IMG/VR virus record: IMGVR_UViG_2537561618_000007
Source of the DNA: a virus
Lineage: Duplodnaviria; Heunggongvirae; Uroviricota; Caudoviricetes
Length of the DNA: 16,450 bases
Reading direction: 5' to 3' (one strand)
Shown here: positions 1-13,370 of the stretch, piece after piece
How the letters are laid out: every line of letters begins with the position of its first letter
How positions within the stretch are numbered: position 1 is the stretch's first letter
The notes under the pieces: model-generated
Databases searched by the model: none
Told to the model about the DNA's origin: nothing
Seen by the model: only the letters and a program-made list of their open reading frames with translations
Made by a program: the position numbers and the translations under genes

Positions 1-226
1 CATTTAACGCCTTACGCAGTTGCAGAATTTCAGATTCCAGTTCAGCCACCGTGCGGGAACCAGGAGTACCGAGCCCTTTTCTGGCGGCGGTAACCCATTG
101 TCCTAAAGTGCCTTCAGGAAGGGATAATCGGGAAGCGCCTTCACTGATCGAAAGTTGATTTTCAAGAACCGTTCTGACAGCTTCGGCTTTGAACTCTTTA
201 GAGTAACGTTGGGTTTTTCTGCTCAT
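1..226 (-). CDS. IS600 OrfA (HTH transposase subunit), 5' part only; 3' end lies outside the window
   Basis: Reverse complement from ATG (224..226) reads MSRKTQRYSKEFKAEAVRTVLENQLSISEGASRLSLPEGTLGQWVTAARKGLGTPGSRTVAELESEILQLRKALNE, recalled as IS600 OrfA. Confidence 0.8.
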   Translation of the reverse strand, partial: MSRKTQRYSKEFKAEAVRTVLENQLSISEGASRLSLPEGTLGQWVTAARKGLGTPGSRTVAELESEILQLRKALN

Positions 227-290
227 TATTAGCTCCTTCTGATGCCATTCTATTTCAGGAAGGAGTGTCCGTTAAACTCAGGCTACCTCA
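1..290 (-). mobile_element. IS600 (IS3 family), partial copy cut by the window start; terminal inverted repeat ends at 290
   Basis: Positions 265..290 gtgtccgttaaactcaggctacctca are the reverse complement of a TGAGGT...CGGACAC terminal repeat that recurs at 12270 and 15690. Positions 1..105 are identical to 13220..13324. Encodes the IS600-type OrfA. Confidence 0.8.
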
Positions 291-524
291 GCTTTCCGCG
301 AGTGGGTAGCCATTCAGGCCGGATTTTACACCGAGCATTTTTATCCGGACGGTAGCCGTGGGTGTCGGGCGAAATCTATCGCGTTTGCGAATATGGACGA
401 AACCGAGTTTCAGCAGGTTTATAAATCTGTACTGAATGTGCTGTGGAACTGGATTCTGTTCCGTAAATTTTCCTCTCCGGAACAAGTCGAAAATGTGGCC
501 GCGCAGCTGCTGGAGTTTGCGTAA
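291..524 (+). pseudogene. 3' fragment of a prophage nin-region gene whose 5' end was removed by the IS600 insertion
   Basis: Reading frame is open from the IS600 junction (291) to a TAA at 522..524 (...MDETEFQQVYKSVLNVLWNWILFRKFSSPEQVENVAAQLLEFA). The stop overlaps the ATG of the next gene (TAATG). Family not recognised. Confidence 0.4.
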
Positions 525-814
525 TGGTGGATTTACTTAAAGCGGCGCGGGGGCAGATGTGCACCGTCAGAATTCCTGGCTACTGCAATCACGATCCGGA
601 AACGTCTGTGCTGGCGCATTACCGACTGGCGGGAACGTGCGGAACAGCGATAAAGCCACACGATATGCAGGCAGCGATTGCCTGTAGCTCGTGCCACGAT
701 TTAATCGACGGGCGGGTAAAAACCAGCGATTACACCAAAGAAGAATTACGCCTGATGCATGCAGAAGGTGTTTTTCGCACACAAGAAATCTGGAGAAAGG
801 AGGGATATTTATGA
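524..814 (+). CDS. ybcO: YbcO-like DUF1364 protein (putative nuclease) of the lambdoid nin region
   Basis: 96-aa product [40 protein letters not shown]...[12 protein letters not shown] matches the recalled DLP12 YbcO pattern (same length, conserved Cys/His spacing). Confidence 0.7.
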
Positions 815-925
815 TTTACCCAACGAATACAGGAAAAAGCGGAGAACACCTTCGTCTCACCACGCTGGAAAGTGTCTGGATTCAGGGAAAACTACGTATG
901 TGGGGGCGCTGGTCGTATATTGGTG
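811..925 (+). pseudogene. 5' fragment (38 codons) of an unknown gene interrupted by IS911
   Basis: Strong RBS AAGGAGG at 797..803, ATG at 811 overlapping the ybcO-like stop (ATGA). Reading frame runs [38 protein letters not shown] straight into the IS911 left end at 926. Confidence 0.45.
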
Positions 926-966
926 TGAAGTGGCACACTGAATTTGGCCACCTGAACAGAGGTGAT

Positions 967-1299
967 ATGCTCACCTCAGAACAACACAGGTGCTCCAATG
1001 AAAAAAGAAATTTTAGCGCAGAGTTTAAACGCGAATCCGCTCAACTGGTTGTTGACCAGAAATACACGGTGGCAGATGCCGCCAAAGCTATGGATGTTGG
1101 CCTTTCCACAATGACAAGATGGGTCAAACAACTGCGTGATGAGCGTCAGGGCAAAACACCAAAAGCCTCCCCCATTACCCCGGAACAAATTGAAATCCGT
1201 GAGCTCAGGAAAAAGCTACAACGCATTGAAATGGAGAATGAAATATTAAAAAAGGCTACCGCGCTCTTGATGTCAGACTCCCTGAACAGTTCTCGATAA
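967..1299 (+). CDS. IS911 OrfA; the expected ATG (998..1000) is out of frame, and the only in-frame ATG inside the IS is at 967
   Basis: Body translates ...[98 protein letters not shown]. The ATG at 998 is followed by six A then G, which puts it out of frame with this body. Confidence 0.6.
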
Positions 1300-1325
1300 T
1301 CGGGAAACTCAGAGCGCATTATCCT

Positions 1326-2165
1326 GTGGTCACACTCTGCCATGTGTTCGGGGTTCATCGCAGCAGCTACAGATACTGGAAAAACCGTCCTGAAAAACCA
1401 GACGGCAGACGGGCTGTATTACGCAGTCAGGTACTTGAGCTACATGGCATCAGCCACGGTTCGGCCGGAGCAAGAAGCATCGCCACAATGGCAACCCGGA
1501 GAGGCTACCAGATGGGACGCTGGCTTGCTGGCAGGCTCATGAAAGAGCTGGGGCTGGTCAGCTGTCAGCAGCCGACTCACCGGTATAAACGTGGTGGTCA
1601 TGAACATGTTGCTATCCCTAACTACCTTGAAAGGCAGTTCGCCGTGACCGAGCCAAATCAGGTGTGGTGCGGTGATGTGACCTATATCTGGACGGGTAAG
1701 CGCTGGGCGTACCTCGCCGTTGTTCTCGACCTGTTCGCAAGAAAACCAGTGGGCTGGGCCATGTCGTTCTCGCCGGACAGCAGGCTCACCATGAAAGCGC
1801 TGGAAATGGCATGGGAAACCCGTGGTAAGCCCGGCGGGGTGATGTTCCACAGCGATCAGGGCAGTCATTATACGAGCAGGCAGTTCCGGCAGTTATTGTG
1901 GCGATACCAGATCAGACAGAGTATGAGCCGGCGCGGAAACTGCTGGGATAACAGCCCAATGGAACGCTTCTTCAGGAGTCTGAAGAACGAATGGATGCCG
2001 GTGGTGGGTTACGTAAGCTTCAGCGAGGCAGCTCACGCCATAACGGACTATATCGTTGGATATTACAGTGCACTAAGACCGCACGAATATAACGGTGGGT
2101 TACCCCCAAACGAATCGGAAAATCGATACTGGAAAAACTCTAACTCGGTGGCCAGTTTTTGTTGA
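1326..2165 (+). CDS. IS911 OrfB (DDE transposase catalytic domain), normally made as an OrfAB fusion by -1 frameshifting
   Basis: ORF-track product ...[21 protein letters not shown]...[13 protein letters not shown]...[12 protein letters not shown] matches IS911 OrfB. The -1 frame is open from the slippery A AAA AAG at 1248..1254. Confidence 0.8.
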
Positions 2166-2173
2166 CCACTTCA

Positions 2174-11887: not shown

Positions 11888-11919
11888 ATTTTTTTGCAAA
11901 TCACAAAGTCCATTTAATG

Positions 11920-11945
11920 AGCCTCGCACTTGCGGGGCTTTTATA
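11920..11945 (+). terminator. Intrinsic terminator downstream of Rz
   Basis: 8-bp stem AGCCTCGC / GCGGGGCT (one G-U pair), loop ACTT, followed by TTTTAT. Confidence 0.5.
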
Positions 11946-12089
11946 TGTCCGCAGTAAACCGCGCATCGCAGCGCGTAACAATCCCGAGTCTTTCAGAAAG
12001 CTGAGCCTGAGAACTGCCGTATAGGTGAGGACCTCTCGGGGACGGCTTTTCTGTGCGAACAGGCTCAACTTTCTAAAGGAAATACCGAC

Positions 12090-12269
12090 ATGAACAAATC
12101 ATTAACCGTTCTTCCTTCTGGCGAATACCCGACCATGAGCAGTCTTGAGATGGTGGATTACATTAATGCTGATCGGAAATCCAAAGCGGAGGCGGAGGGG
12201 CTTGCGTTCCCCTGTAAGAAATATCGCAAACTCGAACACCGCAGTTTCATGAAGAAAGTACCCAGGGTC
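12090..12269 (+). pseudogene. 5' fragment of a second Rha/antirepressor-like gene truncated by IS600
   Basis: MNKSLTVLPSGEYPTMSSLEMVDYINADRKSKAEAEGLAFPCKKYRKLEHRSFMKKVP fits the Rha N-terminal pattern. Frame runs into the IS600 terminal repeat at 12270. Confidence 0.5.
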
Positions 12270-12312
12270 TGAGGTGTACTGGCAATAGCGGACACTACCA
12301 TTTGTTCTTTTT

Positions 12313-13104
12313 TTAAGCAGCCATCTGATGATATTTTTCCCTGAAGGCTGCCGGGGAGATATTCCCCAGACGAGAGTGACGACGCTGACGATTGTAGAAA
12401 ATCTCAATGTATTCCCGTATTACTGAGATGGCTTCATCCCGGTTATTAAAACGATAGTGGCTCAGGCTCTCATTTTTCAGCGTTCCCCAGAAGCTTTCCA
12501 TCGGAGCGTTGTCGTAACAGTTACCTTTACGCGACATTGATGTTTTCAGACCAGACTGCTCCTGTATGACCCGGTAATCGTATGCGCAGTACTGTGAACC
12601 TCGATCAGAGTGGTGGATTAGCCCGGCAGGTGGGCGCTGGCTCCTGAGCGCCATAAACAGGGCTTTACCTGTCAGCTCTTTTGTCATGCGCTCTCCCATG
12701 GCGTAGCCGACAATTTCGCACGTATAAACATCTTTGATGCCAGCAACATACGTCAGGTCCGCCACCCAGACCTGATTTGGTGCTGTAGGAGCGAACGTCT
12801 GGTTCAGCAGATTTGGCGCAACTGGCAGATTGTGGTTCGGGTTCGTAGTCGCTCTGAACTTGCGTTTCTGCTTACAGCGTAGCCTCAGCTCCTTACGAAG
12901 ACGTGCCAGTCGGTCACGACCAACGATGATGCCATTCTCTGCCAGCTCCGTCTGGAGCCGCCGGGTTCCATATGTTTCGCGAGTGCGGATATGTGCCACC
13001 TTAATCTCCAGTTTTAGCCGCTCATCACTTTGTTTTCTGTCTGAGGGTTCATGCTGTACCCAGTTGTAATAACCGCTCCTGGATACACCAAATACCTGAC
13101 ACAT
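12313..13104 (-). CDS. IS600 OrfB (DDE transposase domain)
   Basis: 263-aa ORF-track product, identical to the product of 14856..15647 on the opposite strand. Carries the typical HSD...YDN...E pattern. Confidence 0.85.
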   Translation of the reverse strand: MCQVFGVSRSGYYNWVQHEPSDRKQSDERLKLEIKVAHIRTRETYGTRRLQTELAENGIIVGRDRLARLRKELRLRCKQKRKFRATTNPNHNLPVAPNLLNQTFAPTAPNQVWVADLTYVAGIKDVYTCEIVGYAMGERMTKELTGKALFMALRSQRPPAGLIHHSDRGSQYCAYDYRVIQEQSGLKTSMSRKGNCYDNAPMESFWGTLKNESLSHYRFNNRDEAISVIREYIEIFYNRQRRHSRLGNISPAAFREKYHQMAA

Positions 13105-13139
13105 CGCTTCAATGGGAAATTGTTGTCGCCATTGTTCGA

Positions 13140-13319
13140 TTAACGCGTATTTTTCAGCGACTCCTGTGCAAAATACGCTGTTGATTTTTTTAATATATCG
13201 CGCTCAAGGCGAGCTTCATTTAACGCCTTACGCAGTTGCAGAATTTCAGATTCCAGTTCAGCCACCGTGCGGGAACCAGGAGTACCGAGCCCTTTTCTGG
13301 CGGCGGTAACCCATTGTCC
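13140..13319 (-). pseudogene. IS600 OrfA, 5'-truncated
   Basis: Encodes ...GQWVTAARKGLGTPGSRTVAELESEILQLRKALNEARLERDILKKSTAYFAQESLKNTR and lacks the N-terminal ~40 codons present in the copy at 1..226. Confidence 0.75.
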
Positions 13320-13370
13320 TGAAGGCACTGAACCGCCCCGGGTTTCCTGGAGAGTGTTTTATCTGTGAAC

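Follow-up and report, generated by a model that had tools for sequence, protein, structure and literature searches.

Two copies of the insertion sequence (IS) IS600 stand in the same orientation on either side of some 12 kb of lambdoid prophage DNA in the viral record IMGVR_UViG_2537561618_000007, and the question raised by this locus is whether the enclosed DNA can move, or be lost, as a unit. The window, by which we mean the whole stretch analysed, is the entire 16,450-bp draft contig AFHC01000021.1 (assembly GCA_000213475.2), to which it is 100% identical over positions 1-12365, the part compared; AFHC00000000 is Shigella flexneri 4343-70 (PMC5429569). We conclude that the bracketing is very probably a side effect of the spread of IS elements and the scrambling that they cause, and not a functional mobile unit. 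In all likelihood transposition as an IS600 composite is closed to the segment, its loss would require ordinary RecA-dependent recombination between homologous stretches of about 1 kb, and the contig most likely strings together three short-to-medium unique pieces via multi-copy insertion sequences. The anatomy of the window, the target duplications, the empty sites, and the deletion junction with its presence in other genomes were read directly from the sequences compared. These were 45 related loci, fetched through genes lying inside the bracketed segment, and a collection of E. coli genomes that has no Shigella in it and served only as a source of empty sites and IS names.

Each IS600 copy interrupts a gene of its own

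The initial annotation placed one IS600 at 1..290 and a second from position 12270, both on the minus strand and each interrupting a phage gene, and all of this is borne out, with the second copy ending at 13319. Copy 1 (1..290) comprises nucleotides (nt) 1-290 of the element, that is, the left inverted repeat (IRL) and the start of orfA, and the contig breaks inside it. The reverse complement of the IRL (TGAGGTAGCCTGAGTTTAACGGACA) ends at position 290, and the match to the annotated 1264-bp IS600 of E. coli FDAARGOS_943 (locus L002) is perfect (290/290, 100%). The gene that it cuts belongs to the nin region and is left as a 3' fragment at 291..524 on the plus strand, with positions 291-521 encoding the C-terminal end of a DUF1367 protein and matching Pfam PF07105 from position 123 to 198 of 198 (E = 1e-35); in FDAARGOS_943 this gene is intact and the IS600 site empty. 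The copy at the start of the window does not belong to some other structure or orientation, as complete genomes have at this site a plain full-length 1264-bp minus-strand IS600 within a 3-bp GCT target duplication. The same DUF1367 gene also harbours an IS600-flanked foreign insert in NEDR01000002.1 (L034, 3367-10132), where, at the copy 1 site, a 462-bp IS600 stub and a full IS600 enclose a cheR-cheB-cheY-cheZ segment.

Copy 2, designated IS600a' (12270..13319, minus strand), cuts a Rha/Ant-like regulator gene of which the 5' fragment (60 of 198 codons) remains at 12090..12269 on the plus strand. The gene is intact at 4202-4798 of the FDAARGOS_943 locus, with the IS600 site uninterrupted, and S. 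flexneri genomes carry a full IS600 within it, flanked by the 3-bp duplication GTC. It matches PHROG anti-repressor and transcriptional regulator families (E about 5e-11), has no Pfam match even at E = 10, and owes its Rha family name to one RefSeq record; the label "Rha-like" is acceptable but loose. Position 12270 is the right inverted repeat (IRR) end of the element, and alignment to the 1264-bp IS600 leaves only nt 188-1264, the first 187 nt having been lost together with the IRL and the start of orfA. The orfB frame has in addition a 27-nt in-frame deletion just 3' of the first catalytic Asp motif, which removes nine residues (ATQEGWLYL) directly after DLTYV, and the slippery run reads A7T instead of A7G. 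LR213452.1 carries this same sequence. Both copy 2 and a third copy near the right end of the window are about 99% identical to the reference IS600 and retain the IRR, and neither has both ends together with an unbroken orfA-orfB frameshift gene, as a complete element would; copy 1 leaves the contig.

Related genomes show a distinct 3-bp duplication at each of four IS600 sites, namely GCT in the DUF1367 gene, GTC in the Rha-like gene, GTA in molR, and AAC at a further copy that we call IS600b. The separate duplications of copies 1 and 2, each in its own gene, argue for independent insertions into two prophages and not for a single unit.

The 27-nt deletion defines a 1237-bp IS600 variant that is present at several S. 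flexneri sites, including those at about 12744 and about 15217 in the window, 7443-8679 in L025, and approximately 8662-9898 and 13495-14731 in L038. Its occurrence at several sites indicates that a copy that is probably defective has spread, by mobilisation in trans or by gene conversion.

Mobility and loss of the bracketed segment

That the segment is a composite transposon or a regularly excised circle, mobile or unstable in itself, seems to us very unlikely, even though the direct repeats invite the idea. Window positions 1-103 and 13217-13319 are identical at 103/103 positions, well above chance, and up to 1050 bp of IS600 are left in copy 2, giving about 1 kb of potential homology; the structure of the region is also highly variable among S. 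flexneri strains, and the che segment described above, lying between two IS600 copies at the DUF1367 site, is the type of product expected if an IS600-bearing circle had integrated. However, functional outward ends are not present on both flanking elements, as the outer end (IRL) of the right-hand copy has been deleted and its transposase gene has the 27-nt deletion. The target duplications and the interrupted genes are separate for the two copies, with no single duplication around the whole, the left outer flank lying beyond the window, and the unit was found at no other locus retrieved. IS3-family elements, moreover, seldom build composites, and move by way of a circle in which a single element has its IRL and IRR joined. 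The composite unit put forward in the initial annotation is therefore not sustained.

Its other proposal, loss by homologous recombination, fares better in one part, since the repeats are in direct orientation with enough homology. The expected deletion product is DUF1367 5'-IS600-Rha 3', that is, AAGTCGTTTGAGGCT and IS600 followed by GTCCTCGGGGATGCA; neither this junction nor a circle junction occurs in the 45 loci scanned, a sample that is biased by having been fetched through genes inside the segment. Recombinational loss between the copies is possible in principle, as it is for any of the hundreds of IS pairs in Shigella (PMC7373316). Overall, a mobile or excisable unit is only weakly supported.

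Two prophage remnants are joined at IS911

The enclosed 12-kb DNA is not the one prophage segment that it was first taken for, but is composed of two different lambdoid prophage remnants. The first (291-925, containing DUF1367', YbcO, and DUF1133') is assigned to a DLP12-like prophage and includes, at 524..925 on the plus strand, the YbcO (DUF1364) gene (Pfam YbcO, E = 1e-43) and a 5' fragment of a DUF1133 gene identified by annotation. It is followed by IS911 (926..2173, plus strand, 99% identity to annotated IS911), which joins it to the second remnant (2174..12089, plus strand), as delineated by open reading frames (ORFs), Pfam families of collinear loci, and tRNAs. In S. flexneri genomes of the 2457T type, the two prophages occupy different chromosomal positions. 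We propose that the two minus-strand IS600 copies go back to simple insertions that took place independently, one in the DUF1367 gene (GCT) of one decaying lambdoid prophage and the other in the Rha/Ant-like gene (GTC) of another.

The gene content of the second remnant is that of a lambdoid phage, with a nin region, Q, and a holin-lysozyme-Rz cassette in canonical order. It runs from the 3' end of a primase/helicase gene through NinB, NinE, a Gp49/HTH toxin-antitoxin pair on the minus strand, and Phage_pRha to replication genes (DnaC-like and DnaB-like), NinH, Q, four tRNA genes, holin, lysozyme, and Rz, with Rha' extending the remnant to 12269, and the Pfam families in collinear loci are NinB, NinE, NinH, Phage_antitermQ, Phage_holin_2_1, Phage_lysozyme, and Phage_lysis. 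The tRNA genes are situated at 9373-9683, between Q and holin, as is typical of lambdoid prophages, and comprise a CAT tRNA, Arg-TCT, Thr-TGT, and Gly-TCC; the CAT tRNA is Met according to ARAGORN, and its counterpart at the same prophage position in an E. coli record is annotated as Ile. At 3340-3900 on the minus strand, within the nin region, the toxin gene is of the Gp49 family (HigB-like) and the antitoxin gene of the HTH_3 family, and the pair overlaps a plus-strand Phage_ASH ORF call.

The IS911 that joins the remnants has no target duplication, its left flank ending in GTG and its right flank beginning with CCG. A plain IS911 insertion in DUF1133 of CP026772.1 (L025) is bordered by a GTG duplication, and the left flank of the present IS911 is instead a terminase fragment in CP026776.1 (L027) and an integrase fragment in CP026871.1 (L024). 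The closest complete genome is CP026776.1, with 99.98% identity over 926-12365. The exact linkage of DUF1133', IS911 in plus orientation, and the primase 3' end was, of all the loci fetched, confined to this draft contig. A joint of this kind might reflect recombination between two IS911 copies, or the path of an assembler through the repeat.

The ends of IS911 that meet these flanks are not constant. The flank ccggcatctgtt abuts the IRR of IS911 in the window, L024, and L027, and the IRL in L025 and L032, and the DUF1133' flank abuts the IRL in the window and L025, but the IRR in L040. Juxtaposition of the same flank nucleotide with opposite IS911 ends would not come about by homologous recombination, and requires repeated targeted insertion or a transposase-mediated event.

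A deletion juxtaposes two inverted IS600 copies

To the right of the Rha-like gene, repeat finding reveals a quasi-palindrome at 12270-15690, in which IS600(-), an IS629-like element (-), and IS600(+) form 1056-nt arms around a 1311-nt spacer. The left arm is joined to the remainder at junction J (13316..13328, to which no strand applies), where a TCCT microhomology (13316-13319) is followed by nt 175-183 of IS600b in plus orientation. The element in the spacer (13329..14633, minus strand, 1305 bp) is of the IS3 family, with 25-nt inverted repeats, a CAC target duplication inside IS600b, Pfam HTH_Tnp_1 and rve domains, and 99.4% identity to annotated IS3-family elements. It is presumably IS629, a name based on its ends, and with its orfB split in pieces this copy is likely non-autonomous.

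The ancestral arrangement is that of most S. flexneri genomes (among them L014, L016, L017, L020-L022, and L040), with the order Rha 5'-IS600a(-)-Rha 3', about 1.5 kb of DNA, and IS600b(+), into which IS629 has inserted after nt 183, and then Nu1/gpA. Comparison with this ancestral state shows J to be exactly a simple 1866-bp deletion: removal of 16704-18569 from L040, between two TCCT tetranucleotides, recreates the window junction precisely. The deleted 1866 bp are made up of two inverted IS600 5' ends of 183 bp, which agree at 182/183 positions, and the intervening 1505-nt loop, and the TCCT tetranucleotides lie within a few bases of the base of the stem. J is also seen in LR213452.1, three similar complete genomes, a noisy draft (L019), and AFGV01000031.1, and its presence in several genomes demonstrates that it is real and inherited.

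Palindrome-stimulated deletion occurs in E. coli, and the geometry of J suggests slipped mispairing across the base of a hairpin. We propose that the second IS600, facing a nearby inverted IS600b that already carried IS629, was truncated later, when one 1866-bp deletion, with its endpoints in the TCCT repeats where the potential hairpin has its base, would have taken both 183-bp 5' ends and the 1.5-kb loop and left the IS600-IS629-IS600 quasi-palindrome. Two other origins of the palindrome were considered. Replication fold-back, giving an inverted duplication, and inversion between two IS600::IS629 copies were both rejected, since complete genomes preserve an ancestral state in which the two inverted IS600 insertions are separate and bear duplications of their own (GTC and AAC), and a single 1866-bp deletion then accounts for J exactly.

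A second, independent deletion allele exists at the Rha locus in L018 and L023. At about 10180-10260 of these loci, Rha 5'-GTC-TGAGG runs directly into the IRL of IS600b, with only 5 nt of IS600a left, and the allele looks like an end-targeted IS600 event.

The right arm and its join to molR

The right arm of the quasi-palindrome, IS600 copy 3 (14634..15690, plus strand), was defined by the inverted repeat and a table of variable sites. It spans IS600 nt 181-1264, lacking nt 1-180, and has the same 27-nt deletion as copy 2. The arm is a mosaic, its proximal ~144 nt resembling IS600b and its distal part agreeing with the left arm throughout, even in the 27-nt deletion, which IS600b does not have in LR213452.1, L019, or AFGV01000031.1. 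We considered the deletion as unique proof that the arms copy each other and rejected this, the variant being present at other S. flexneri sites. Beyond the arm lies a fragment of molR, a DUF4132 gene next to metG (15691..16249, plus strand; molR nt 192-747, 99.5% identity to E. coli molR), and molR homology stops at 16249, where the 5' part of an IS1 element begins (16250..16450, plus strand) and continues to the break in the contig. IS1 transposase genes come next at this position in L004-L013. All ten of the ten S. flexneri molR loci retrieved have the order molR 5', IS600 (with the GTA duplication), this fragment, and IS1.

The join between the right arm and molR is in our view probably an assembly chimera. 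It is in no complete genome retrieved, only in this contig, and in all complete genomes with junction J the right arm runs into Nu1/gpA. A mosaic arm followed by a foreign exit is the pattern expected when a repeat has been collapsed and then left by an arbitrary exit, and this favours a chimera.

The alternative is that the contig is correct throughout, in which case strain 4343-70 truly has the prophage mosaic bounded by a full IS600 on one side and the quasi-palindrome on the other, with the right arm continuing into molR. Recombination of IS600b with the molR IS600, causing an inversion or translocation, would have provided the route, and gene conversion between the arms would have spread the 27-nt deletion; taken jointly, we consider this rather unlikely. 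Its strengths are that every single IS/unique junction of the contig is known from other genomes, and that the right arm has the make-up expected of a crossover, with proximal 144 nt like those of IS600b and a 3' flank that coincides exactly with the molR one. Many IS-mediated inversions are documented in Shigella chromosomes, and IS-mediated deletion and rearrangement more generally (PMC7373316). However, the distal right arm matches the left arm and neither IS600b nor the molR IS600, as a collapsed repeat would give, and the prophage and molR loci of CP026765.1 and CP026792.1 share one relative orientation at a distance of about 1.4 Mb, so that metG and other essential genes would be lost in a simple crossover. 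A palindrome arm likewise leads to a foreign flank in AFGV01000031.1, a second draft of the same accession series.

A further reading is that the quasi-palindrome is real and recurrently unstable in S. flexneri, with at least two independent collapses of an inverted IS600 pair (the TCCT deletion and the allele with 5 nt of IS600a), gene conversion between its arms, and service as the prophage-molR crossover point in 4343-70. We think this doubtful; if true, it would make the quasi-palindrome a natural chromosomal case of palindrome-driven instability and rearrangement.

Reliability of the contig and comparison with known systems

The contig starts within IS600 and ends within IS1, which are typical repeat-induced breaks. 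Because the window is a complete draft contig, linkage across its long IS copies is provisional, and we view the joins across IS911 and across the right IS600 arm as unreliable. Several points weigh against our interpretation. These two joins could be real strain-specific rearrangements, the comparison having been made on assembled sequences. L025, L039, and L040 also place both prophage remnants side by side via IS911, with different joints from that in the window, and in the complete genome UGYU01000001.1 (L040) two minus-strand IS600 copies bracket a 5.7-kb hybrid, so some lineages may truly have the bracketing. For J, finally, the proposed slippage is drawn from geometry. The practical lesson is one of method, calling for caution when structure is read from IS-threaded draft contigs: the present contig is a short draft one that passes through multi-copy IS of four kinds, and structural claims based on its linkage need long-read or polymerase chain reaction (PCR) support.

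The locus resembles composite transposons of the Tn10 and Tn5 type in that two copies of one IS flank a segment of DNA. It differs in that the copies are direct where an inverted pair is usual, one outer end is gone, each copy has its own target duplication, and the unit is not found elsewhere. A closer likeness at J is to the inverted-repeat-stimulated deletions by slipped mispairing known from model plasmids in E. coli, as both 183-bp stems and the loop between the TCCT repeats are likewise removed. Unlike those, J is natural and chromosomal, its stems are IS600 ends, the base of the stem was set by the IS629 insertion, and slippage is suggested by the configuration of the junction. As a deletion common to several complete genomes, it is a neat natural example of inverted-repeat-stimulated deletion, and mildly instructive.

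The structure as a whole is ordinary and of a kind already known. Decay and scrambling of Shigella prophages by IS1, IS2, IS4, IS600, and IS911 have been described (Hawkey et al. 2020, PMC7373316), and the window is one example of this, with no substantive difference. Genes of phage and chromosome alike are broken up by IS600, IS911, the IS629-like element, and IS1, which also connect segments that are unrelated, and the same locus varies from strain to strain. The bracketing thus carries little biological weight, IS-bracketed prophage wreckage being the normal state of Shigella chromosomes.

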